Source: Candidatus Heimdallarchaeum endolithica
GTDB lineage: Archaea; Asgardarchaeota; Heimdallarchaeia; Heimdallarchaeales; Heimdallarchaeaceae
Length of the DNA stretch: 64,000 nucleotides
Assembly: GCA_021513715.1 (NCBI GenBank)
Contig: CP084167.1
Span: forward strand, 3,008,001 to 3,072,000
Reading direction: 5' to 3'
The position numbers and the translations under genes were made by a program. Positions within the stretch are counted from its first letter, which is position 1. Every line of letters starts with the position of its first letter. The notes under the pieces are model-generated. The model did no database searches. It was not told the DNA's origin and saw only the letters and a program-made list of their open reading frames with translations. Below, in pieces: positions 27,266 through 42,006 of the stretch.

Positions 27266-28417
27266 GTGATCAATCCCGTGATTCTAAAAAAACTGAGAAG
27301 AATGAGAAAAGGACAGGTTAGAGGGATAGATTTCGCGTTAGGTATGCTTATTTTTATTATTGCTTTTAGTCAAGTAATAATAGTTCTTACTCATCTTCTT
27401 GTTCCTTCTATAATGCAAATGGAAAATTATTCAGAATATCAAGAATTGGATAAGTTGTATAGTCTATTTTATTATTCAAAAGGTAATCCTTCTAATTGGG
27501 CAACAATAGGTACTTCTTCTTTAACAGACTTTTCTCTGGGTTTAAGCGGTGATGATGGCCAGTTATCCTTTTCTAAGATAAATAGATTAACTTCAGATAT
27601 AGCTGATTATTGGAAAATAGATTATCAATTTGTAAAAACATCTTATGGGCTTTTAAAAGATTTTGCTATTTCTGTAGATTCAGCAATTAAAATTCAAATA
27701 GATAGTTTTAGTGCAGGATTTGGAACACTTACTGTGACAGGACAAGTTCTAGAAGATTCAACCTCTGTTGAAAATGTTGATATCACTGCTTTTGTACTAG
27801 ATAAAGAAAATAATGTGTTTACTAATATTACAACAACAAAAAAGAATTCAAATGAAGTTAATTTTATCTCAAGTTTTTCATTGACTACTTCAAACTATTA
27901 TACAATTGTAATCTTTGCTAATATCGATGACATCTATGAATCATACTATGTTTTTAGGATCTATAAAGCAGATGATAGTTTTGAATATGAAGAGGTGGAT
28001 TTTAACTTTAGACCATTGGTTTTAGAGAATAAAGAAAAACATTCTTCAGCAATTGATGTTCGTTTTTCTAGTCCTGCAATAACAGATGAAGCAGTAGCTA
28101 CTGTTTTATTTTCAAAAAGAGATGTTGGAAAAAGCTTCTATAATCAAACTCTATCTCAACAATCTTCATTAGAAGAAGGGAACTTCTATTTAGGGACAAA
28201 TATTCCCATCCCAACTCAAGGGCTTGCAGTTGTTATTGTGCAAGAGAATGATGGGTTAAATTATAGAGCAGGATATATGGGTATACCTATGTTTTTGACA
28301 GAAACTGCTTCGAGCATTTTTGGAAATGAAGGAATTCTTTCTGGAGAATACATCTATTCTTTTGATTTACTTTATGTCAGAAACAGACTAGTTAAATGTC
28401 AAATTTGGGTGAATTAA
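27266..28417 (+). CDS. Pilin-like protein with class III signal peptide (large)
   Basis: RRMRKG|QVRGIDFALGMLIFIIAF followed by a beta-rich domain. Confidence 0.8.
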   Translation: MINPVILKKLRRMRKGQVRGIDFALGMLIFIIAFSQVIIVLTHLLVPSIMQMENYSEYQELDKLYSLFYYSKGNPSNWATIGTSSLTDFSLGLSGDDGQLSFSKINRLTSDIADYWKIDYQFVKTSYGLLKDFAISVDSAIKIQIDSFSAGFGTLTVTGQVLEDSTSVENVDITAFVLDKENNVFTNITTTKKNSNEVNFISSFSLTTSNYYTIVIFANIDDIYESYYVFRIYKADDSFEYEEVDFNFRPLVLENKEKHSSAIDVRFSSPAITDEAVATVLFSKRDVGKSFYNQTLSQQSSLEEGNFYLGTNIPIPTQGLAVVIVQENDGLNYRAGYMGIPMFLTETASSIFGNEGILSGEYIYSFDLLYVRNRLVKCQIWVN

Positions 28418-28885
28418 ATGAGAAAATTGTTAAGGTCTAAAAAAGCACAACTGTTTGTTATTGAAGCTTTTATTGCTGTTTCTGTAATGTTGATAATGGT
28501 TATTGCTATTTATGAAGTACAATTAGCAACAGTTCCTCCGAAAGATCAAGGATATACAGAATTAACCTATAATATACTAGAGGCTCTAGATCAAAGTGGA
28601 CTACTTGAAGAGTATGTTATTGCTCTTAAATCTGGAAATTCAACTAATATCGAAATTGTTCAAGATAATATAAGTTTGGCAGTTTACTCATCATTACCTG
28701 AAAATTCAGATTTTTACTTCTATTGCAAAAATATAACCTCAAACGAGGTAATTACCTCAAGCATAATAAATATTTTAGATACAGAACAAGTGAATATTTT
28801 CACTTCAGAATATCTAGTTACAGAGGTTAATGGGACGTTTGATCCTTATAGTTTCTATTTAGCTGTTTGGGTGGTAGGTGTTTAA
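28418..28885 (+). CDS. Pilin-like protein with class III signal peptide
   Basis: RSKKA|QLFVIEAFIAVSVMLI. Confidence 0.85.
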   Translation: MRKLLRSKKAQLFVIEAFIAVSVMLIMVIAIYEVQLATVPPKDQGYTELTYNILEALDQSGLLEEYVIALKSGNSTNIEIVQDNISLAVYSSLPENSDFYFYCKNITSNEVITSSIINILDTEQVNIFTSEYLVTEVNGTFDPYSFYLAVWVVGV

Positions 28886-29567
28886 TATGAATATAAGAAA
28901 ATTCTTTCAAAATAAAAAAGGAGAAGTATTTATTTTACTTGCTTTGGTTATTCTACTTTATCTAATGTTGTTGTCTACAACAATTTATAACGTTACTCAG
29001 ATTCCTTATATTGAACCTTCACCCGAGCAAGACCAGACAAACAATTATATAGAAAATGCTATTTCTGCACTCTATAATCTTGTTGATGTGGCTCTAAACG
29101 AGTATTCTCATGGCTCTGAAGAAACAACTGTTAGAGGTAATTTTATTGATAATGTTAAAATAATTGAAAATTATCTTGATGAACGTAATCTTGTGGCTAC
29201 TTTCTCAGTAAATGAAACAAGTTTCAGTATTACAAACTCTTCTATGAGTGTAAATCCTGTTTATATATCTTTCAAATGTTCTGTTTCAATCTCAATAATT
29301 TCAATAAATGAAAGATTTGAAACTACTTTAGCAATTAACGTAAGCTATTATGTTGAAATATCTGAACTGTTAGGAAATGAAAATTATATCTATTGCTATT
29401 CAATTAAACAAGGTATAGAATATCCTTTAAGTGATTGTCAAGTTACAATCTCTCCAGCAACTACAGTTACAAATATTGGAGACGGAAGTTATATGGCTGA
29501 CCTCCAAACTGGACAATTAATAAAAGTGGTTTTCAACAATAATATTCTTTTATGGAAAGAAGTGTAA
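28878..29567 (+). CDS. Pilin-like protein with class III signal peptide
   Basis: QNKKG|EVFILLALVILLYL. Confidence 0.8.
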   Translation: MFNMNIRKFFQNKKGEVFILLALVILLYLMLLSTTIYNVTQIPYIEPSPEQDQTNNYIENAISALYNLVDVALNEYSHGSEETTVRGNFIDNVKIIENYLDERNLVATFSVNETSFSITNSSMSVNPVYISFKCSVSISIISINERFETTLAINVSYYVEISELLGNENYIYCYSIKQGIEYPLSDCQVTISPATTVTNIGDGSYMADLQTGQLIKVVFNNNILLWKEV

Positions 29568-29623
29568 AAAAAGAAGGATGAGAGAAGTAAAAATTTACTC
29601 TTGTATTCATTTTTATTCTTTTA

Positions 29624-30253
29624 TTATTGAATATCAATAGACACTCCTTCATCTTTTTCTTTTTCTTTGCGTTGAATAACAACTTCTAATACTCCATTGT
29701 TGTATTTTGCTTTAGCAGTTTCAATTTTTACAGGAACAGGTAAATCTATTTTCTTTTCGTATTTTCTATCTTTGGAATGTGCTTTTATACTTAATCTTGA
29801 CTCTGATCCTGTGAGTTTAATATCTCCTTTACTAATTCCTGGGACTTCAGCAATAACTCTAACTTTGTCTTTTTCCTTAAAAATATCGATTAATGGTTCT
29901 CTAACGTCATAAGTTTCTATATGCCCTGTTCCTTTAGGTTTTACATTCCCAAACTGTCTAAAACTTGGTTTTCCATCAGGGTCAAATCCAATTTGAAAAC
30001 CATAAACAAATTGATTTCTTAATAAATCTTCTAAACTTGTGTCTGCATCTAGATTTCTTTGTAGGTTCTTCATTAATTCTTTAATCATATTATCAATCAT
30101 TCTTCCAAAACTTGAACCTTTCATGAACGGTAAAAATTGTTCCATAAATTCATCTATATCAAATCCATCAAATGTAAAATCATCAATTTTGAAAGGAAAT
30201 GGAAAGTCGTCATCATCTGGTTTTTTATCTTTCTTTTTTTTGTTATTAGGCAT
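29624..30253 (-). CDS. hsp20: Archaeal small heat shock protein Hsp20
   Basis: VYGF..GPDGKP-like motif, REPLIDI, AEVPG, AKYNNGVLEV, C-terminal IxI. Confidence 0.9.
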   Translation of the reverse strand: MPNNKKKKDKKPDDDDFPFPFKIDDFTFDGFDIDEFMEQFLPFMKGSSFGRMIDNMIKELMKNLQRNLDADTSLEDLLRNQFVYGFQIGFDPDGKPSFRQFGNVKPKGTGHIETYDVREPLIDIFKEKDKVRVIAEVPGISKGDIKLTGSESRLSIKAHSKDRKYEKKIDLPVPVKIETAKAKYNNGVLEVVIQRKEKEKDEGVSIDIQ

Positions 30254-30350
30254 TTTATCACCAATCAGACTTATTGTAATTCACAAATATAAACTTAACA
30301 ATATAAACAAAAAAAGAAAGAAAAATGGAATACAATATCTGTCTGTTTAT

Positions 30351-31880
30351 TTATCTTAGTGCTTTCTTTGCTTTTTCTATTGTTCTATCAGGGTCAGAGT
30401 TATACTCTTGAATGATTGAAGCTACATCTTCAAAGTAACGAATTCTTTTCTTTACCATCCATCTTAAAACAGTTTTTCTTCTCTCAAGTTCGTCGTGGAT
30501 ATCTTGCTCTGTTTTTCCTGTATTCTCCATTATTTTTTCTAAAACATAACTTCGGCCAAAGTAAATAAATGAATCTTCTCTAGGATTCCACTGAAATACT
30601 TTGTTTGTGAGTATTTCTTCTGTAACAGGGTCTAGACCTATTAGTTCAGTAACTGTTTGTGTTCTTCTTGCAAATTTGCCTTGATGACGGACTTTTCTAA
30701 CTACATGAATAATATCCAGACTTTTCATCATATTTCTTGGAATGTTCATTGGTTTACTCTCGAGTCTATGAATAACACCTTCTACAGAGTCACCGTGAAT
30801 GGTTCCTAGACCTCTGTGTCCTGTACTCATTGCTTGGAACATTGCATAGGCCTCTTGTCCTCTTATTTCTCCTACAATAATGTAGTCTGGCCTTTGTCTC
30901 ATAGCTGCTCGAAGTAGTTCATACATAGATATTTGACCCCGCCTATAACCTGTTTCTGTTGCTTCTCCGAAACCTGAACGGACTACGCTTGGAATCCAGT
31001 TTTCGTGTGCTAGATTTAATTCTGCTGTATCTTCAATTGTAACAATTTTCATATCTGGTTTAATCATCATACTTAAGGTGTTAAGCAAAGTTGTTTTTCC
31101 TGCAGCTGTTCCTCCAGCTACGAGAATAGATACATTATGTTCCATGATGAACCAATAGTAAGCTGCGATTTCAATGTCAATTGTGTTGTAAAGAATTAGA
31201 TCTGTAATTGTAAAGGGATCAGCCTTAAACTTACGGATAGTAAATGTTGACCCTCTTTGAGTAACTTCTTTTCCATATGTTAGTTGCACTCTGCTTCCAT
31301 CTTCCAGACTCGCATCTAACAAAGGATTAGCAATACTTACATGTCGTCCTGCTCTTTGAGCTAATTTGATAATAAAACTATTCAATTCGTCCTCAGAGTC
31401 AAAAGATACATTTGTAGCTATTGATTCATATTTTCGATGCCAAACATAAATAGGAATACCTATACCGTCACATGATATGTCTTCGATATTAGGGTCAAGC
31501 ATAAGAGGTTGTATCTTTCCAAAACCAATGAGATCTCTTGTTAAGTAATACATTATTTTCTCGAATTGGTTTTCATTTAGTTTTATACGATATCTCTTGA
31601 TAACGTCAACTATTTTCTTTTTTAGATATTCTTCTGCTTTAGTGAAATCCTTGAGAACGCTAAAATCTACATCTAGTTCTTCAATGAGAATCTCTAAAAT
31701 CTTGTTGTAGATAGCTTTTTCTTTGCTATCTAATGGTATTTCAACAACCATATATTGAGTTCTCTGTGTAACAGGATTTGTTTGTATTAATACATAACTG
31801 AAAGGGGGACTAACAGGATAAGTTTCTTCTAAAAGAGGAACTGAACTGTCAATTGACATTGTACCGAAATTTTCATCCAT
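30351..31880 (-). CDS. Type IV pilus assembly ATPase (archaeal PilB/VirB11/FlaI-like)
   Basis: DPNIEDISCDG, FTIRKF, Walker A GGTAAGKTT, IEDTAE, RQRPDYIIVGEIRG, TGH..TIH. Confidence 0.95.
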   Translation of the reverse strand: MDENFGTMSIDSSVPLLEETYPVSPPFSYVLIQTNPVTQRTQYMVVEIPLDSKEKAIYNKILEILIEELDVDFSVLKDFTKAEEYLKKKIVDVIKRYRIKLNENQFEKIMYYLTRDLIGFGKIQPLMLDPNIEDISCDGIGIPIYVWHRKYESIATNVSFDSEDELNSFIIKLAQRAGRHVSIANPLLDASLEDGSRVQLTYGKEVTQRGSTFTIRKFKADPFTITDLILYNTIDIEIAAYYWFIMEHNVSILVAGGTAAGKTTLLNTLSMMIKPDMKIVTIEDTAELNLAHENWIPSVVRSGFGEATETGYRRGQISMYELLRAAMRQRPDYIIVGEIRGQEAYAMFQAMSTGHRGLGTIHGDSVEGVIHRLESKPMNIPRNMMKSLDIIHVVRKVRHQGKFARRTQTVTELIGLDPVTEEILTNKVFQWNPREDSFIYFGRSYVLEKIMENTGKTEQDIHDELERRKTVLRWMVKKRIRYFEDVASIIQEYNSDPDRTIEKAKKALR

Positions 31881-31991
31881 TTTATCTCTATATCGTTAAA
31901 GCATTCATTACTTATAATTTTTTTGAATTTATCTAATGAAAAAGGGAAAAAGTGAAAAAGAAAGTATGAGAATTTAAATGCACAGTGATTA

Positions 31992-32588
31992 CTAAATATA
32001 TTTGGGAGTAAACATTCCTACAATAATAAGAAACATTTTTTTGAGAAAATTTAAAGGTTTAATGGAATCAAATATCTCTCTCAATGACCTTGAAGTATCT
32101 CCAGTGAAAACTCTAAATGCACATGCTTTATCATATTTACAATTTATACAATTTTTCCTGAACTTTTCTCCTTCTTCTAGTAGTCCATTTTCAACAATAA
32201 AGTTTTGGAACACATTAAAAACAGAAATATCTCCATTGAAGAAATCAACTTGTTCTCCGAAATTGTCATCAAAGAGCTCTGCCATTAGCCTTAATCTATT
32301 TGTATACTCGTCTATATTTACTGGAGGTTTCAAGGCAAATATTGCATTAATTCTTTCAGTTTGATAACTAAGAACAATTGACTTTTCCATTTCAAATAAA
32401 TGAAATTCATATGATTGAGTTCTATCATAGATGATTTTTGCACTAAATAAAGCAGATTTTAACAAGGATTCATCATCCATAGTTGCATCTTTCGACAAAT
32501 CAATACAGTGGACCCCAATATGACACATTAAAGATCTTGCAAATAGAGGTATTCCTGCTTGATTTGAAATGATTAAATTTTGTATCAT
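31992..32588 (-). CDS. Longin-like domain protein with Cys clusters
   Basis: MIQNLIISNQAGIPLFARS and C-terminal F..F.GDISVF pattern typical of Asgard longins; CHIGVHC and CINC..C. Confidence 0.55.
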   Translation of the reverse strand: MIQNLIISNQAGIPLFARSLMCHIGVHCIDLSKDATMDDESLLKSALFSAKIIYDRTQSYEFHLFEMEKSIVLSYQTERINAIFALKPPVNIDEYTNRLRLMAELFDDNFGEQVDFFNGDISVFNVFQNFIVENGLLEEGEKFRKNCINCKYDKACAFRVFTGDTSRSLREIFDSIKPLNFLKKMFLIIVGMFTPKYI

Positions 32589-32709
32589 ACTTATTGTAAC
32601 TAGAAATGACCATTTAAATAACTTTTCGTGATTTTTTGGTTTCTTTGTTTGTTGTCCTTTAGATATTGAAAAAATATTAATAATAAATTATAAAAATATA
32701 TATAAAAAT

Positions 32710-33189
32710 TTAGACTCCACTACTAGAAAAAATGATTCTTTTATTTACTCCGTCAAATAGGTAGGTTACTGTTGGATTTTTTAATGAACTAACTATCTCT
32801 CCAGAAAAAGTCACATCTGTATTTTCAAGGTACAAAGTTACAGTTGCAGAAACATCTTCATTTTCTACTAAATATGCGTAAAGAAGATATTCTGTTGCAC
32901 TTTCTGGTAATAAATAAGTTATAACATATTCTTCTTCTTGGACATCGTTGGGTAGAGACAAAGACAGTTGTATCTTGAAATCTGTTGCTCCTTGCTGAAT
33001 TTTTTTGTCCCCCATCTGTTTTAGATCCAAAATTGAGTTAGCTACTTTTTGTAATATTTGCTCTAGACTTGTTTCTATTGCCCTATTTTCTAAAGAATTG
33101 TTTAAACTAACCATTGTTGCTGATATTCCAGCAATAGCTAACGAACCAATCATAATAATAGATAAATACATAACATATTCGCTTGGCAA
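32710..33189 (-). CDS. Pilin-like protein (no obvious basic class III leader)
   Basis: N-terminal hydrophobic helix SEYVMYLSIIMIG; located in pilus operon. Confidence 0.6.
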   Translation of the reverse strand: MPSEYVMYLSIIMIGSLAIAGISATMVSLNNSLENRAIETSLEQILQKVANSILDLKQMGDKKIQQGATDFKIQLSLSLPNDVQEEEYVITYLLPESATEYLLYAYLVENEDVSATVTLYLENTDVTFSGEIVSSLKNPTVTYLFDGVNKRIIFSSSGV

Positions 33190-33198
33190 ACTTTCTTT

Positions 33199-34056
33199 TC
33201 ACCCTACAATATTAATATTGATGTTTATCTTAATAATATTAACGTAAAGATAATGAAAACTGTAATTTGTGTTTACTGGAACATATACTGCCTGTTCTTC
33301 TTCCAAAGAGTGATGTTCTCCATAAATATTAGCTTTACCTATTAAATCAGAATTGAAAGCGATAGGTTCTAAAGATATCTTCTCTGTTCCACTAAACTCA
33401 ATTTCTAAAGGAATAGATTTTGTTGTGTTTTCGACTCCAAAATCGCTGTTGGTATTAATTGATACATGGATAATATCAATGGTAAATATTTCTTCTGTTC
33501 CTACAACTCTATAATCAATATCAATGCAATATCTATAGTACAAGGACATATATAGATAAGCAGGATCAAATATTGTCCTGGTCTCATTTATTACTGTAAT
33601 ATCATTGTATAGTTTAGTACTGCCATTAATGAATAAGTAATCTTGATCTTCAGGACCTTTAAGGTATCTGTGCTCTCCTTCTTCAAAGTCTTCAACATTT
33701 GTGCTCTTATGAACCAGTCTAGTCAAGTTTTCTGCAATAATTGACTTGCTAAAAGAACTTGCTGTATCATATAAAGTAAAATAAACTACTTTACTATTAT
33801 CGAAATACAATGAACCATCTTCTTGGTAATAATCAAATGAAATAGCTTGAGGAGGTGGGTTAACAAGCAAGTTCTGGATGTTTGAGTCTAGAGCACTAAA
33901 ATATAAACGAACAGAATTGTTATAGCTATTATCTTTAAATTGTATAATGCTAGGAAACATATAAACTAAAGATACTCCTATAGCTGCTAAAATAAGCGTA
34001 AACATAAGTATTGTTGCTACTATTGGAGATACTCCCTTCTTTTTACTCAGTTTCAT
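33199..34056 (-). CDS. Archaeal type IV pilin
   Basis: Canonical KKKG|VSPIVATILM class III signal. Confidence 0.9.
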   Translation of the reverse strand: MKLSKKKGVSPIVATILMFTLILAAIGVSLVYMFPSIIQFKDNSYNNSVRLYFSALDSNIQNLLVNPPPQAISFDYYQEDGSLYFDNSKVVYFTLYDTASSFSKSIIAENLTRLVHKSTNVEDFEEGEHRYLKGPEDQDYLFINGSTKLYNDITVINETRTIFDPAYLYMSLYYRYCIDIDYRVVGTEEIFTIDIIHVSINTNSDFGVENTTKSIPLEIEFSGTEKISLEPIAFNSDLIGKANIYGEHHSLEEEQAVYVPVNTNYSFHYLYVNIIKINININIVG

Positions 34057-34518: not shown

Positions 34519-37500
34519 TTGGCAGATCTAGAACTATCAGAAAATGCATTAACTGTACTACAAAAAAGGTATTTGCTAAAAAACGAGAAAAATGAGGTAA
34601 TTGAAACTCCAGAACAGATGTTTGAAAGAGTAGCAAAAAGTATAGCTTCAAATGATGAAGAAAAAAAGGAATTTTATGAACTCATGACTTCATTAAGATT
34701 CCTGCCTAATAGTCCTACTCTTATGAATGCCGGAACAAAATTAGGTCAACTATCTGCTTGTTTCACTGGAGAACAGGTAATAATCACAGCTGAAGGAAAT
34801 AAGCAAATAAGAGATATTCAGATTGGAGATTTGGTTCTGACAGCTGAAGGTAATTTTAGAAAGGTTACCCAAACTATGCAGAGAAAAGTTGACAAAAGAT
34901 ATATTATTGATGTTTTGAAACTACCTAACTCTACTCTTTCTGTAACAGAAGATCATCCTATTCTTACCTATAAAGATGGAAAAATTAAGTGGAGTTTGGT
35001 AAAGGAATTAAGTAAAAACGATTTTGTAGCTTTATCATACCCAAAGGAAGTTGAAGATATTTCTTCAATTAATGTTATAGATTACTTATCTGATAAGCAT
35101 TATAAAGTAAAAGATGGTGTAGTAGTAAATAAAAATATAGAAGTTGAAACAGAATCTAGTGAAATAAGCGTTCATAAAGTCCCAATCAAAAATAAGATAG
35201 AAGTAGATGAAGATTTTCTTAGATTTTTGGGTTATTATGCTAGTGTGGGAGAATCAGATAAAAAAATAGTAAGATTCAGTTTTTCAGATAAGGAGATGGC
35301 TTATGCTGAAGAACTAATAACTATTGCAAAAAGAAAATTTGGATTAGATACAAGAGTAGAAATCTTGAATGAAAATATAGTAAAAGTTCAGTTTTGTTCT
35401 TCTATAATTAGTGAATTTATTAAGAAAATTATAGGAGATGTAAATAATAAAAGAGTCCCCATATGGATATTAAAATTACCCCCAGAAAAACAAGAAAACT
35501 TTGTTTTAGGGTGTTTTAGAGATGATAATTCTCTATTTTCTAATGGTTATATGCTTAATGCTCGATTATCTGCATGTAATGATAATTTAGTATATTCTAT
35601 ATGGATTATGTTAATGAGAATGGGAATAGTTCCCAATCTCGATAAATCATCTATTCCTAAAAGTGAAACCACCTATTCCTACTCTCCCTATATTAGTGAA
35701 ACAAAAGAGAGCAATTCCTTTGTAGAAATTCATGGAAAAGAAAGTAAAGGATCTTCACAACTATCTTTACAAAAATTAAAACATATAGTTGTTAATGATA
35801 CAGTTTTTCTCCCTATACAAAATATTGAATGTATCGAAGAACCTGTGACTGTATTTAATTTAGAAGTAGAGGAGGAACATACATATGTTGCAAATTTTGT
35901 TTCAGTTCACAATTGTTTTGTACTGCCAATAGATGATTCTCTTCCCTCCATTTTTGACGCAGTAAAAAAAGCAGCATTAATACACCAAAGTGGAGGAGGA
36001 TGCGTTGCTGAAGGAACAGTAATACCTACAGAAGAATTCGGTTTTATACCTATTGAGCAGATTTCTGGATTCGAAAAAATACCAGCTGATGAACAAGGAC
36101 ATGATTGTGAACCTTTTACTGTTTTTTCGTTTGATGAGGATTCAGAATCTTTCAAAAAAGGAAAAGTAACAAAACTTTGGAAATTTAAGAAAAGTAAGTA
36201 TTTACAAGTTAAATTCGGAAAAGAAGGAGTAATAGAAGTTACACACTGGCATCCTTTCATAGTTTATGTGCCTTCTGAAGAGCAAAAAAAAGAAGGAAAT
36301 TATACTGAAAAACGAGCAGATGAATTGAAAGTCGGAGATCTGTTGGTTAGTCCATCTACCCATAGGATAACTGAAACGTCTGGTATTTCAGATGCACACA
36401 AAGTTAGAGTAGAAGAAATAAAAGAGATAGAAGAAGAAAAAATATTCTATGACTTTACAGTAGAGAAATATAATAATTATCTAGCGGGGAATAAACAATT
36501 TACAGTGATTCATAACACTGGGTTTAGTTTTAGTAACATTAGACCAAAAAATGATGTAGTCAAAACTACTGGTGGGGTAGCTTGTTTTCCTGAAGATGTA
36601 AGGATTTATACTAACAAGGGATTATTAACAATCAAAGAAATAATCCAATCTGATCAACCAATTAAAGCTTTGACTCATGATGGATTCCACGAAATAATAA
36701 ATAAATACGATAACGGAGAAGCTGAAGTTTACAGACTTATTACATCTAATGGATATTCAGTTAAGGCAACCTCTACTCATAAATTTTTAACAATAGAAAA
36801 TAATGAGTTGGTACTAAAACCTCTTAATAAACTTCAAGAAGGAGATTATGTTCTTCTTTTTTCTACTTTTGAATCTGTTGATGAAAAAGAACCATTTAAG
36901 CTATCTCCTATTACTGACGATGGACAAACTTTTGATGAAATTTATCTTGATGAAGATCTTGCATATTTCATAGGATTAACTTATGCAGATGGACATATTA
37001 TTGATGATGGAAGACATTATAGCGTAAGAATCACTTTAAACAAGAACCAAATACGTATAATCGAAAAAATAAAGAAAATAGTTAAAACTAAGTTTGACTA
37101 TGATTTGAAAGTCTATGAGCGTAAAAATGTAAATAAAGTTGAACTTGTTCTACATGGAAAAAGATTTGTAAAATTGTTAAAAGAAAATAATTTACTTAAA
37201 GAAAAATGTGAAAATATTCGTATTCCAGAATTATTATTTCAAAGCCCAAGAAATGTCCTAAACTCATTTATTGCAGGATACTTCGATGGTGATGGTCATG
37301 TAAGTAAAAGCGGGCGAATTAGCATTAAAACAATATCCAAACAAATGAGTGAAGATTTTTCATTATTGATAACGCGGTTAGGTGTACTATCTACAACTCA
37401 TATTAGTCCCCCTATTTATGGAATAAGAAGAAATAAAAAAAGTTACAGAGTTTCAATCCCAACAGCTCTCTTCAAGAAAAGATTTGTAGAACAGCTTTCG

Positions 37501-40500
37501 AAATACTCAATAAAACTAGAAAATTATACACTGAAAGAAGGATCTACAAATAAACTTTTTTCTTATCCGTTTAACATCTTAACTCATATTGGGAATCCTT
37601 CCACGAGGGCAGATATATCTAGAACAATAATACCTTATAATAGGAAGAATACTTATCGTAAAGCTATTCTACGTATTCTTAAAAATTCTGATAAATATGG
37701 ACTTACACCAGATGAAATTGCTTTCTTAAAGAAACTAGAAAATCTTTACCCTATAAAGATAAAATCTATTAAAAAAGAAGGAATTGAACATGTTTATAAT
37801 CTCGAAGTTAAGAATGTCCATCGACTTGTTGCTAATGGATTTTATGTTTCAAATTCAGGCCCCATAAGTTTTATGGAAGTTTTTAATGCTGCAACAAATA
37901 CTATCAAACAAGGGGGATGTATTGCTGCTGAGAGTTTAGTAAGAACTACAAATGGTGTTCTTCCTGCTGGTGATTTACTTAATTGTCCTCCCCTTGGCGA
38001 AAACAACACTCAAGAATTAATCTATGATGGAGAGTCGTATAATAATGCTTTTCTGTCTCTGGATAATGGTTTTGCGGATGTATTAATTCTTGAAACTGAT
38101 CTGGGTTTAACTTTAAAAGCTACATATAATCATTTAATTGCTACAGTATATGAAAACGGGAATATTGTATGGACTGAGGTTGAGAAGATTAAGAAGGGCG
38201 ATTGGGTTGTAGTTGTATTAGGGGGTCACATTGGACAAAAAATCTTCCTCCCAAAAATAGAAAATCAACATCATAATGCTAATCCCATTAAAATCCCTGA
38301 ACAATTTAATGCTGAGCTTGGCGAAATCTTAGGTTTGTATATGGCTGATGGCTTTATTAGTACTGATGGTAAAATCATCTTTAGCGTTGACAATAAGGAT
38401 TCAGATCTCATTAAAAGAATCGAGTATTTAATGAAAAAAGTATTTAATTTAAAACTTGGAAGAATAGAAGATAAACAAACTTACTCGGATGTTATTTTCT
38501 ATTCTCGTGATCTATGCGACTATTTCAGTAAAATGAATTGGAAAAAAGAGTCATCATCAAAAGCTTTTGTCCCTAAAGAGATTTTTATTTCTGAACCAGA
38601 AATAGCAAAAGCATTTGTCAGAGGATTGTTTGAAGGCGATGGAAATGTTCATTCTGATGGATATCCAAGACTTTATTCTACATCTAAAGCATTAATTGAA
38701 CAAACTCAACAACTTCTTTTAGGACTTAACATTGTTTCTTCTGTAATAAAGGGAGAAGATAGAAGCAAGAGTTTAGGTGATTTATCTATCTATCAATTAT
38801 TAATAATTCTTGAAAGAAGTGTTATAAAATTCAAAGAAGAAATTGGTTTTATATCAAACAGAAAAAAACAGTTGCTGGAATCTAGGTTTACATGTAGAAA
38901 TTCCAAACAAATTAAGAATTCCAAGCATTTCCAACAGATGTCTGATCCAAAATACTATTTTACAAAGGTTATAGATATTAAAGAAAATCGAACTTATACA
39001 ATGGATTTTGAGGTGCCAGAATCCAGCAAATTCGTAGCAAATGGTTTCTTGGTACATAATCGTCGTCGGGGCGCTAACATGGGTATCCTTCGTGTTGACC
39101 ATCCTGATATCATGTCTTGGATTACTTGTAAAGAAGACCAGACCAAATTTACTAACTTTAACATTTCTGTTGCAGCCACTTCTGCGTTCATGCAAGCAGT
39201 AGAAGAAAATAGAGATTATGACTTGATTAACCCTCGTACAAAGAAAGTAGTAGGCAAACTTAATGCTACAGAAGTCTTTAACAAAATTGTGGAGATGGCT
39301 TGGAAGAATGGTGAACCTGGAATAGTTTTTATTGACCGCATGAATGAATTCAATCCTACTCCTGAAGTTGGAGATATAGAAAGTACTAACCCTTGTGTGG
39401 TAGGTGATTCATTAATATCTACAGAATTTGGATTAATGAAAATGCGTGATTTAGTCTCCAAGTTTCCTGAAGGTTCTGTAAAAATAGTTACAGATAACCG
39501 TGTTCCTCAACAAATATTAGCATCTGGAAACCAAGTGCAGTTGTTGGATACTAAAACTCAAGGAGTATCATTGAATACTATCACACATGCTTTCTCTACT
39601 GGGATAAAAGATGTATACAAACTAACTACAGTATCAGGTTATGAGTTGAAAGCTACTGGAGATCATAAAGTACTAACCAATGAAGGTTGGGTACAAGTAA
39701 AAGACTTAGATTGTAAAAAATATAGAATAAAGATACAATCTGGAGAAGGAGTTTTTAATAGTGTAAAAGAGTTACCCTTCAAAGTCGAAAATGAAATAAC
39801 TGGTGCGAACGGAAGAAAATATAGTTTTAATTTACCAAAAACATGGTCAAAAGAGTTAGGTCATGTACTTGGTTGGTTGGTAGGAGATGGTTGGATAAGG
39901 ACTGGAGATAAGAATAGAAGAGTAGGATTTACTTTTTCAAAGAAAGATGAAGAAGTGTTAAGGTATCTCAAGGATGTATTAAACAGATGGTATAACAAAC
40001 AAATAAATGAAATAAAAAGAGAAACAAATGTTTATCATTTAAGTTACCATTCAAAATATTTTGTTGATTTCTTCTTAAAATTAGGCGTTAAACCAGTAAA
40101 ATCAGCAAAAAAGGTTGTACCAGAGTCAATGTTTCTAGCTACTAAAGACGCTGTAATTGCTTTCCTACAAGCACTTTTCTCTGCAGATGGAACAATACGT
40201 TGCTCAAAGAAATCTTCAAGCGAATGGATAGCCCTTTCATCAAAAAGTAAAGAATTGTTAAAAGGAGTACAACTGTTATTGTTAAACTTGGGTATCAAAT
40301 CACGAATATTTGATCGAACAAGAAAAAGAAGAGAAAAAACATTCAAGTACATCGATAAAAATGGTTCTCTAAAATATTACAATAGTGATGGAATACTCTA
40401 TGAACTAGGAATATTTGGAAAAAATATTGACATATTCAAAGAAAAAATAAATTTCTTACAGGAGGAGAAAAAAGAAAAATTAGCGAAACTTAAGCCAAGA

Positions 40501-42006
40501 AAAAGAAGAGAAATCATTTTTGAAGAGAAGATAAAGAGTATCAAATATGTTGGAAAGAAAGAAGTATATGATTTAACTGAACCAAAAACATTAAGTTTCA
40601 TTGCAAATGGAATTGTAAGTTTAGATTGCGGAGAGCAACCCCTTCTCTCTTATGAGTCTTGTAATCTAGGTTCTATTAATCTTGTAAAGCATGTTAACGA
40701 TGGAGCGATAGACTGGTCTCTACTTGAATCAACTATCCGTACAGCTGTTCGCTTTTTAGATAATGTAATCGATCGTAATGTTTACATTATTCCTGAAATA
40801 GAAGAGATGACTAAAGCTAATAGAAAGATTGGCCTTGGATTAATGGGTTTTGCTGATTTACTTGTCGAACTGGGTATAAGATATGATACAGAAGAAGCAT
40901 TAGAAATAGCTGAAAAAGTTATGTCTTTCATTCAAAAAGTAGGCAGAGATGAATCTGTCAAATTAGGTGAAGAAAGAGGTAGTTTTCCTAACTTTGATAG
41001 AAGTATTTACAGAGAAAAGTACAAAACCATGAGAAATGCAACAATCACAACAATCGCTCCTACAGGAACTATTTCTCTTATTGCTGGATGTTCAAGTGGT
41101 ATCGAACCTTATTATGCAATAGCTTTTGTGCGAAATATACTAGGTGGAAAGAAACTTTTTGAAATTAATCCCATTTTCGAAAAAATAGCTAAAGAGAAAG
41201 GATTCTACTCTGAAGAGCTTGTGGAAAAAATTTCTTCTGTTCATTCTATACAGAAAATAGAGGAAATACCAGAAGAAATTAGAAAATTGTTTGTAACAAG
41301 TCAAGATGTTTCCCCTGAATGGCATGTGAGAATCCAAGCAGCTTTTCAGAAGTATACAGATAATGCTACTAGTAAAACAATTAATTTCTCAAAAGAGGCT
41401 ACAAAAGAAGATATAGCAAAAGCTTACAAGCTTGCTCATAAGCTGGGGTGCAAAGGTGTAACAGTCTATCGTGATGGTTCAAGGAAATATCAAGTATTGT
41501 CTACAAAAACGAAAAAGAAGCAAAAAGAGAAGCAACATGTTGTTACTACAGCTAAAGTTGTACCTAGAGCCAGACCAGAAATAACAATTGGTAAAACACA
41601 CAAAGTTAGAAGTGGTTGTGGTAATCTTTACGTTACTGTTAATCAAGATGAAAATGGGGATATTTTTGAAGTCTTTGTTCAAGTAGGTAAATCTGGAGGA
41701 TGTATCACCTCTCAAAGTGAGGCAATTGGAAGATTAATTTCTCTTTCACTTCGTTCTCATGTTTCAGTTGAATCCATTGTGAGACAACTGTCAGGGATAC
41801 GCTGTCCTAACCCTAGTTTCTACAAAGGAAAAAGTATTCTCTCTTGCGCTGATGGTATAGCTTTAGTGCTTGAGCAATATATCAAAGGAAATCCTAACGT
41901 ACGTGAATCTAATGGCTCTATCGTTTGTCCTGATTGTGGAGGAGTTTTAGCTTTTTCTGAGGGTTGCTATACTTGTACAAGCTGTGGTTACAGTAAGTGT
42001 AGTTAA
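34519..42006 (+). CDS. nrdJ: Class II (B12-dependent) ribonucleotide reductase precursor with 5 inteins (about 722 aa after splicing)
   Basis: Exteins reconstitute PNSPTLMNAG..QLSACFV, GGGTG, QGG.RRGANM, TNPCGEQ..CNLGS, IAPTGT; C-terminal TSCPD-like domain and Zn ribbon. Confidence 0.97.
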   Translation: MADLELSENALTVLQKRYLLKNEKNEVIETPEQMFERVAKSIASNDEEKKEFYELMTSLRFLPNSPTLMNAGTKLGQLSACFTGEQVIITAEGNKQIRDIQIGDLVLTAEGNFRKVTQTMQRKVDKRYIIDVLKLPNSTLSVTEDHPILTYKDGKIKWSLVKELSKNDFVALSYPKEVEDISSINVIDYLSDKHYKVKDGVVVNKNIEVETESSEISVHKVPIKNKIEVDEDFLRFLGYYASVGESDKKIVRFSFSDKEMAYAEELITIAKRKFGLDTRVEILNENIVKVQFCSSIISEFIKKIIGDVNNKRVPIWILKLPPEKQENFVLGCFRDDNSLFSNGYMLNARLSACNDNLVYSIWIMLMRMGIVPNLDKSSIPKSETTYSYSPYISETKESNSFVEIHGKESKGSSQLSLQKLKHIVVNDTVFLPIQNIECIEEPVTVFNLEVEEEHTYVANFVSVHNCFVLPIDDSLPSIFDAVKKAALIHQSGGGCVAEGTVIPTEEFGFIPIEQISGFEKIPADEQGHDCEPFTVFSFDEDSESFKKGKVTKLWKFKKSKYLQVKFGKEGVIEVTHWHPFIVYVPSEEQKKEGNYTEKRADELKVGDLLVSPSTHRITETSGISDAHKVRVEEIKEIEEEKIFYDFTVEKYNNYLAGNKQFTVIHNTGFSFSNIRPKNDVVKTTGGVACFPEDVRIYTNKGLLTIKEIIQSDQPIKALTHDGFHEIINKYDNGEAEVYRLITSNGYSVKATSTHKFLTIENNELVLKPLNKLQEGDYVLLFSTFESVDEKEPFKLSPITDDGQTFDEIYLDEDLAYFIGLTYADGHIIDDGRHYSVRITLNKNQIRIIEKIKKIVKTKFDYDLKVYERKNVNKVELVLHGKRFVKLLKENNLLKEKCENIRIPELLFQSPRNVLNSFIAGYFDGDGHVSKSGRISIKTISKQMSEDFSLLITRLGVLSTTHISPPIYGIRRNKKSYRVSIPTALFKKRFVEQLSKYSIKLENYTLKEGSTNKLFSYPFNILTHIGNPSTRADISRTIIPYNRKNTYRKAILRILKNSDKYGLTPDEIAFLKKLENLYPIKIKSIKKEGIEHVYNLEVKNVHRLVANGFYVSNSGPISFMEVFNAATNTIKQGGCIAAESLVRTTNGVLPAGDLLNCPPLGENNTQELIYDGESYNNAFLSLDNGFADVLILETDLGLTLKATYNHLIATVYENGNIVWTEVEKIKKGDWVVVVLGGHIGQKIFLPKIENQHHNANPIKIPEQFNAELGEILGLYMADGFISTDGKIIFSVDNKDSDLIKRIEYLMKKVFNLKLGRIEDKQTYSDVIFYSRDLCDYFSKMNWKKESSSKAFVPKEIFISEPEIAKAFVRGLFEGDGNVHSDGYPRLYSTSKALIEQTQQLLLGLNIVSSVIKGEDRSKSLGDLSIYQLLIILERSVIKFKEEIGFISNRKKQLLESRFTCRNSKQIKNSKHFQQMSDPKYYFTKVIDIKENRTYTMDFEVPESSKFVANGFLVHNRRRGANMGILRVDHPDIMSWITCKEDQTKFTNFNISVAATSAFMQAVEENRDYDLINPRTKKVVGKLNATEVFNKIVEMAWKNGEPGIVFIDRMNEFNPTPEVGDIESTNPCVVGDSLISTEFGLMKMRDLVSKFPEGSVKIVTDNRVPQQILASGNQVQLLDTKTQGVSLNTITHAFSTGIKDVYKLTTVSGYELKATGDHKVLTNEGWVQVKDLDCKKYRIKIQSGEGVFNSVKELPFKVENEITGANGRKYSFNLPKTWSKELGHVLGWLVGDGWIRTGDKNRRVGFTFSKKDEEVLRYLKDVLNRWYNKQINEIKRETNVYHLSYHSKYFVDFFLKLGVKPVKSAKKVVPESMFLATKDAVIAFLQALFSADGTIRCSKKSSSEWIALSSKSKELLKGVQLLLLNLGIKSRIFDRTRKRREKTFKYIDKNGSLKYYNSDGILYELGIFGKNIDIFKEKINFLQEEKKEKLAKLKPRKRREIIFEEKIKSIKYVGKKEVYDLTEPKTLSFIANGIVSLDCGEQPLLSYESCNLGSINLVKHVNDGAIDWSLLESTIRTAVRFLDNVIDRNVYIIPEIEEMTKANRKIGLGLMGFADLLVELGIRYDTEEALEIAEKVMSFIQKVGRDESVKLGEERGSFPNFDRSIYREKYKTMRNATITTIAPTGTISLIAGCSSGIEPYYAIAFVRNILGGKKLFEINPIFEKIAKEKGFYSEELVEKISSVHSIQKIEEIPEEIRKLFVTSQDVSPEWHVRIQAAFQKYTDNATSKTINFSKEATKEDIAKAYKLAHKLGCKGVTVYRDGSRKYQVLSTKTKKKQKEKQHVVTTAKVVPRARPEITIGKTHKVRSGCGNLYVTVNQDENGDIFEVFVQVGKSGGCITSQSEAIGRLISLSLRSHVSVESIVRQLSGIRCPNPSFYKGKSILSCADGIALVLEQYIKGNPNVRESNGSIVCPDCGGVLAFSEGCYTCTSCGYSKCS
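34759..35913 (+). mobile_element. Intein 1 (385 aa) at QLSA/CFV, degenerate LAGLIDADG
   Basis: C1 (CFTGE), block B TEDHP, C-terminal VHN/C; endonuclease motifs decayed (LGYYASVG, LGCFRDDN). Confidence 0.93.
36001..36516 (+). mobile_element. Intein 2 (172 aa mini-intein) at GGG/TGF
   Basis: CVAEG, THWHP, IHN/T; no endonuclease domain. Confidence 0.93.
36583..37854 (+). mobile_element. Intein 3 (424 aa) at GVA/SGP with LAGLIDADG endonuclease
   Basis: CFPED, TSTHKF, IGLTYADG and IAGYFDGDG, ends VSN/S. Confidence 0.93.
37918..39060 (+). mobile_element. Intein 4 (381 aa) at KQGG/RRRG, LAGLIDADG; +1 residue is Arg
   Basis: CIAAE, TYNHL, LGLYMADG and VRGLFEGDG, ends VHN followed by CGT. Confidence 0.92.
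39394..40626 (+). mobile_element. Intein 5 (411 aa) at TNP/CGE with C-terminal Asp
   Basis: CVVGD, TGDHK, LGWLVGDG and LQALFSADG, ends VSLD/C. Confidence 0.92.

Follow-up and report, generated by a model that had tools for sequence, protein, structure and literature searches.

How can an essential enzyme be matured from a precursor in which an intein is followed by a residue that cannot accept the upstream chain? The three intein classes described so far all rely on a Cys, Ser or Thr at position +1 (PMC4031507, PMC10663303), and this need limits both the sites at which inteins insert and those that can be used for engineered protein ligation. The question is raised by the fourth of five inteins in the ribonucleotide reductase (RNR) gene nrdJ of Candidatus Heimdallarchaeum endolithica, in a stretch of 64,000 nucleotides (here, the window). 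A sequence-only reading of this DNA had observed that intein 4 ends in FLVHN and is followed by CGT, an Arg codon, and then by RRGANM, which we confirm. Because the residue at +1 lacks a side-chain nucleophile, the block G branched ester cannot form and the second step of canonical splicing is impossible here, in line with the remark in the same reading that standard inteins need Cys, Ser or Thr at +1 for transesterification. The features concerned are the following (a slash marks an intein junction).

34519-42006, plus strand: nrdJ, precursor of a class II (B12) ribonucleotide reductase, 2495 aa, with five inteins
Within 34759-37854, plus strand: intein 1, 385 aa, +1 Cys
Within 34759-37854, plus strand: intein 2, a mini-intein of 172 aa, +1 Thr
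Within 34759-37854, plus strand: intein 3, 424 aa, ending in Ser-Asn, +1 Ser
37855-37917, plus strand: extein between inteins 3 and 4, 21 aa, ending in KQGG, the first half of loop 2, with Gly at -1 and -2
37918-39060, plus strand: intein 4, 381 aa, Hint and LAGLIDADG domains, with key residues Cys1, Thr69 and His72 (block B), Asp363 (F:4) and His380-Asn381
38329-38352, plus strand: LAGLIDADG motif 1 of intein 4, LGLYMADG, assigned from conservation and sequence
38614-38643, plus strand: LAGLIDADG motif 2 of intein 4, FVRGLFEGDG
38891-38911, plus strand (approximate): linker that follows the endonuclease, where 201 nt (67 aa) are deleted in frame by comparison with H. aukensis and with the usual length of 448 aa
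38995-39060, plus strand: blocks F and G of intein 4, with S-S-K-F in place of the block-F N-H-T-Y of the Thr/Ser relatives
39061-39063, plus strand: +1 codon CGT, Arg, a native RNR residue whose side chain is not nucleophilic
39061-39393, plus strand: extein between inteins 4 and 5, 111 aa
39394-40626, plus strand: intein 5, at the site NP/CGE before the active-site Cys, ending in Ser-Leu-Asp

The five inteins together account for 1773 of the precursor's 2495 residues, and the enzyme that remains without them is 722 aa long. The other four inteins are followed by C, T, S and C, respectively. At sites homologous to that of intein 5, the commonest intein end is VRQ, followed by VHN, IHN and SLD; Asp and Gln are known variants of the terminal residue. 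Elsewhere in the genome, about nine more frames match Intein_splicing, with Thr or Cys at +1 in the three junctions that are readable. The window also contains a cluster of short, membrane-anchored, pilin-like ORFs (27266-34056), in which a secretion-type ATPase (30351-31880, minus strand) and a small heat-shock-like protein (29624-30253, minus strand) were recognised, all by eye and from the translations only.

Intein 4 begins with Cys1 directly after IKQGG. Its only Pfam matches are Intein_splicing and LAGLIDADG_3 (E 7.5e-21 for the latter), and both LAGLIDADG motifs are present, in line with the earlier reading, to which they looked intact. AlphaFold gives a confident model of a Hint plus LAGLIDADG fold (pLDDT 87.9), and Foldseek matches this model to inteins, the TliVMA intein being the closest. 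The deletion of 67 aa in the linker may weaken homing; similar deletions are also found in the homologues P0033 and P0090. A shifted junction was considered and ruled out, given that moving it breaks either Cys1 or the His-Asn pair and that exact removal yields the native sequence.

Exact excision of intein 4 restores KQGG-RRRGANM, the sequence of intein-free alleles in the same family. Fourteen genomes of the family carry such empty alleles, which read QGG-R-RRGANM or QGG-K-RRGANM. Since these alleles have Arg or Lys at this position, the Arg is the host's own residue, in agreement with the original suggestion that it is a genuine part of the extein. Among the family genomes that contain the intein, the sister species Ca. 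Heimdallarchaeum aukensis has a 91% identical copy with the same CGT at +1, and the six others have CGT, CGC or AAA.

An alignment of the inteins at the QGG site in relatives, which the sequence-only reading had called for, shows that a +1 residue without a nucleophile recurs and that relatives with Thr or Ser exist as well. In the top 120 full-length homologues, the +1 residue is K, R, I or M in 119 of the 119 readable C-junctions. Searching representatives clustered at 50% identity with a profile brought in more distant members; in this set, which is less biased than the pattern-based one described below, the type of +1 residue tracks the clade. The tally over 134 proteins, near-copies included, is Lys 105, Arg 17, Ile 10, Met 1 and Val 1. 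On the acyl-donor side, the no-nucleophile inteins are preceded by KQGG in 75 of the 76 cases read and by EQGG in one. The named hosts, most records being unnamed, are all archaea: Heimdallarchaeia, Promethearchaeota, Micrarchaeota, Woesearchaeota, Bathyarchaeia, Methanoperedens and Thermoplasmata. In phage records, we found only distant inteins (<30% identity) in other genes.

Phylogenetic analysis places these inteins together. The first homologue set was reduced to 52 representatives at <80% identity (mean identity 49%), and in a maximum-likelihood tree all 52 fall on one side of a branch with an SH-aLRT support of 100. When more distant members were added to the tree along with inteins of other sites, 30 no-nucleophile rows and one odd member, P0128, form a clade with support of 100, which is placed among the Thr/Ser and other-site inteins (root not fixed) and includes zero Thr/Ser members in the normal register. 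Because the root is not fixed, we infer, rather than read from the tree, that the no-nucleophile lineage descended from class 1 inteins. P0128 (L168:1332-4667), nested in the clade, is inserted one residue upstream, KQG/C...HN/SFRRGA, and thus has Ser at +1; this arrangement is present in four sequences, P0128 and three cluster mates. Here the intein may have slid to regain a nucleophile, and the Ser at +1 is a hint that a nucleophile is still advantageous.

Intein 4 is, then, not the one odd copy that it was first taken for. It belongs to an archaeal lineage of mobile LAGLIDADG inteins at the NrdJ loop-2 site QGG/xRRGA (x = K, R, I, M or V). This lineage is large and old, and its canonical relatives with Thr or Ser at +1 occupy the same position. 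The open-access full-text literature yielded no description of a no-nucleophile RNR intein lineage; subscription journals and InBase lie outside this coverage, and novelty is unproven.

The canonical relatives were recovered with a DNA pattern for His-Asn followed by an S, T, C or AGR codon and RRGA, which returned 117 metagenome loci and, being limited to these codons, proves that such relatives exist but not what share they represent. An open pattern gave four viral-contig loci, and the same-site matches there are of the Thr/Ser type. Across the 121 metagenome and viral loci, +1 is Thr in 92 and Ser in 28, with one chance match. These class 1 LAGLIDADG inteins (loci L046-L166; P0124, P0126, P0138 and others) share with the no-nucleophile clade the insertion after QGG, a length of about 430-460 aa, Cys1, the block B Thr and His, the terminal His-Asn and the overall architecture, and wherever readable they start at the Cys after QGG. 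However, the mean identity between the two groups is only about 29%, and their active sites differ. Apart from Thr or Ser at +1, the relatives have a near-invariant Asp at F:4 (97 of 98 distinct C-terminal segments) and N-H/N-T-Y in block F, whereas in the clade with K, R, I, M or V at +1, F:4 is relaxed (among 84 distinct segments, 66 Asp, 13 Glu, 4 His and 1 unread). The F:13 His is almost absent from the clade (2/84, compared with 72/98 in the relatives), and the two residues preceding His-Asn are mostly Leu-Val in the clade and Val-Ser/Thr in the relatives. Asp F:4 has been proposed to deprotonate or activate the +1 nucleophile (PMC4031507), and its relaxation would be expected if step 2 had been lost. 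His F:13 helps in the cyclisation of Asn, but some ordinary inteins do without it (PMC4031507), so that its loss is not diagnostic. In a subclade comprising P0131, P0136, P0142 and P0147, F:4 is His instead of Asp, possibly a compensating catalytic change.

The chemistry of both junctions is retained: Cys1, Thr69, His72, His380 and Asn381 are invariant (100%) in the 52 representatives. The dN/dS ratio is about 0.11 in the N-terminal and about 0.10 in the C-terminal part of the Hint domain (Nei-Gojobori estimates from one diverged family pair, other pairs being similar or saturated), and for the endonuclease it is 0.09 in a diverged family pair, with a range of about 0.1-0.25. Between intein 4 and its H. 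aukensis counterpart, the Hint domain shows only 6 non-synonymous and 9 synonymous changes. On an extein-based host tree, the intein label needs 14 changes, a count possibly inflated by losses and some noisy rows, of which at least 6 are forced by strong branches, while in the intein tree the lineage is a single clade. Such a scattered host distribution would fit repeated homing. Taken with the conserved endonuclease, the incongruence with the host tree points to a mobile homing intein, with cutting by the endonuclease as a prediction.

Loop 2, in which the site lies, connects the specificity site with the active site and relays the effector to the substrate, and parts of it are disordered in several Thermotoga maritima complexes (PMC3267527). 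Alignment to T. maritima NrdJ (PDB 1xje, 1xjk), which is the closest solved host protein and is without an intein at the loop-2 site, puts the insertion between S205 and R206, and the +1 Arg is the equivalent of R206. The +2 Arg is the substrate-clamping Arg of loop 2 (T. maritima R207, E. coli R298) and Gln(-3) corresponds to E. coli Gln294; the intein parts these two residues within the loop. In E. coli RNR, the Arg298Ala variant is almost inactive (PMC4728125). We also looked for compensating changes in the host: of 133 extein positions around the site, none tracks the intein (8 genomes with and 14 without it), which argues against local adaptation of the host to a nick.

The search for another RNR that the sequence-only reading had suggested gave none. 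The single-contig genome, rated 92.6% complete, has one large-subunit match, nrdJ, as its sole detected RNR, and neither NrdD, nor a class I small subunit, nor a second large subunit was found in it; NrdD was likewise not found in 13 relatives, whose genomes are mostly incomplete. It follows that the intein must somehow be removed, and intein 4 is presumably excised from the RNR precursor. As to gene inactivation, one of the outcomes first considered, the clade-wide occurrence of the trait, the invariant splicing residues, purifying selection with dN/dS of about 0.1, the scatter across hosts, the location in loop 2 and the dependence on a sole RNR make inactivation unlikely and intein 4 probably functional. 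A route of RNR maturation that dispenses with a +1 nucleophile therefore probably exists.

As to what this route is, our preferred reading, in which we have about even confidence, is a direct aminolysis assisted by the fold of the host protein. In the first step, an N-S shift would form a thioester between Cys1 and Gly(-1). With the branched intermediate bypassed, Asn381 would then cyclise and liberate the alpha-amine of the C-extein. Both exteins would remain folded as a single RNR barrel, keeping the freed amine beside the unhindered Gly-Gly thioester, which the amine would attack directly to restore the native loop 2. Glycine thioesters aminolyse best. The route is the one proposed for the type A bacterial intein-like (BIL) domains, and the host fold would make it efficient here. 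In an AlphaFold model of a homologue with one intein, both exteins fold as one NrdJ (TM 0.80-0.82, depending on the target, against T. maritima NrdJ), a prediction that possibly leans on known RNR structures. We count in favour of aminolysis the altered residues of steps 2 and 3 (F:4 and F:13), which are peculiar to this clade, and the exact native sequence left after excision, together with the lack of extein residues that track the intein, and in favour of ligation the separation of Gln(-3) from Arg(+2) and the near-inactivity of Arg298Ala.

The strongest competitor, which we consider a substantial but distinctly lesser possibility, is double cleavage: hydrolysis of the thioester combined with Asn cyclisation would leave a nicked, working RNR of two non-covalently associated chains. 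It would use precisely the same conserved residues of the intein, so that conservation cannot separate it from aminolysis. A thioester without a +1 acceptor tends toward N-terminal cleavage, BIL domains cleave more than they splice, and cleavage is what Hint domains lacking the +1 nucleophile mainly undergo. Moreover, the nick would fall in a surface loop that, being partly disordered in the T. maritima structures, may tolerate it, and the +1 side chain is evidently free to vary among K, R, I, M and V. That an RNR large subunit can function as two chains is known from NrdA-a/NrdA-b of phage Aeh1 (PMC3045599) and NrdJa/NrdJb of Pseudomonas. However, these splits are at the gene level, whereas nrdJ here is one frame and would be split post-translationally; the Aeh1 split required new tail sequences for interaction (PMC3045599), and no host change accompanies the intein 4 lineage. 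A nick would also cut Gln(-3) off from the Arg(+2) latch within this specificity-setting loop, and among the homologues recovered for the intein no nrdJ gene split at the loop-2 site came up.

The remaining explanations fare much worse than either aminolysis or double cleavage. Ligation might run through another acceptor, either the epsilon-amine of Lys+1 or a thiol relay (a cellular thiol or an RNR cysteine) that holds the N-extein until the amide forms. Lys is indeed the commonest +1 residue (105/134) and is frequent on deep branches; however, the members with Arg, Ile, Met or Val have no epsilon-amine and yet retain the same intein residues, and the Hint domain lacks a clade-wide internal Cys (Cys23 reaches 63% conservation, and Cys never occurs at F:4), which leaves this idea improbable. 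Slightly less probable still is that one junction or neither is cleaved and that the enzyme is active while still carrying the intein at loop 2: in the modelled precursor the intein does loop out and leave the RNR fold intact, but a passive insert would not need catalytic residues that are invariant at both ends, and a domain of 380-450 aa would occupy a loop at the dimer interface. Finally, an assembly error, a recent point mutation or a dead gene, to which the 67-aa deletion and the incomplete rating of the genome could be taken to point, is largely refuted and very improbable given the same CGT in the sister species, the 134 K/R/I/M/V proteins in one clade, the purifying selection, the open frame and the sole RNR in a single contig, and the remark that one substitution separates this codon from Cys or Ser is accordingly disfavoured as an explanation.

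Returning to aminolysis, the lineage might represent a fourth mechanistic class of inteins, one that efficiently ligates an essential host protein with the help of the host fold and colonises K/R/I/M/V alleles closed to its canonical relatives; we advance this tentatively, at a little under an even chance. Should ligation be efficient, traceless joining at Lys, Arg, Ile, Met or Val junctions would be a novel mode of splicing and also useful as a tool. Should the protein be nicked instead, the RNR would tolerate a cut specificity loop and the intein would persist as a parasite that does no more than cleave itself out. Both outcomes would be new, and the Thr/Ser relatives at the same site provide a matched comparison for a direct test.

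Compared with the known classes, intein 4 is closest to class 1. It has Cys at position 1, the block B Thr-x-x-His (T69, H72), the C-terminal H380-N381, a Hint fold and an in-frame insertion at a conserved site with 14 empty alleles, and departs from the class in having Arg where Cys, Ser or Thr is expected at +1. The class 2 (KlbA) signature of Ala1, Ser at G:6 and Cys+1 is replaced by Cys1, His at G:6 and Arg+1. Class 3 inteins have Cys at F:4 and lack the N-terminal nucleophile; intein 4 has Cys1, and the absence of a conserved internal Cys, noted above for Cys23 and F:4, rules out an internal nucleophile and with it class 3 chemistry. The best structural matches are the TliVMA and PhoVMA inteins (PDB 7qss, 7qsu, 7qst) and PI-PfuI (1dq3), at TM of about 0.6-0.7, which share the Hint plus LAGLIDADG fold at 15-21% identity and occupy other host sites. 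These inteins have canonical +1 residues.

The type A BIL domains (Dassa 2004, Aranko 2013, reviewed in PMC4031507) would be a parallel in mode. Like intein 4, they have Cys1 and a terminal His-Asn with no nucleophile at +1, and they have been proposed to splice by aminolysis (PMC4031507). Unlike intein 4, they are free of homing endonucleases, lie at hypervariable spots in non-conserved bacterial proteins and chiefly cleave. Intein 4 has a LAGLIDADG domain, lies within the conserved loop 2 of RNR, an essential enzyme, and has no Pfam match to the BIL Hint families, branching among class 1 inteins in a tree that contained no BIL sequence. If splicing occurs, intein 4 would thus be BIL-like in its mode of action, yet by its sequence and setting it is not a BIL.
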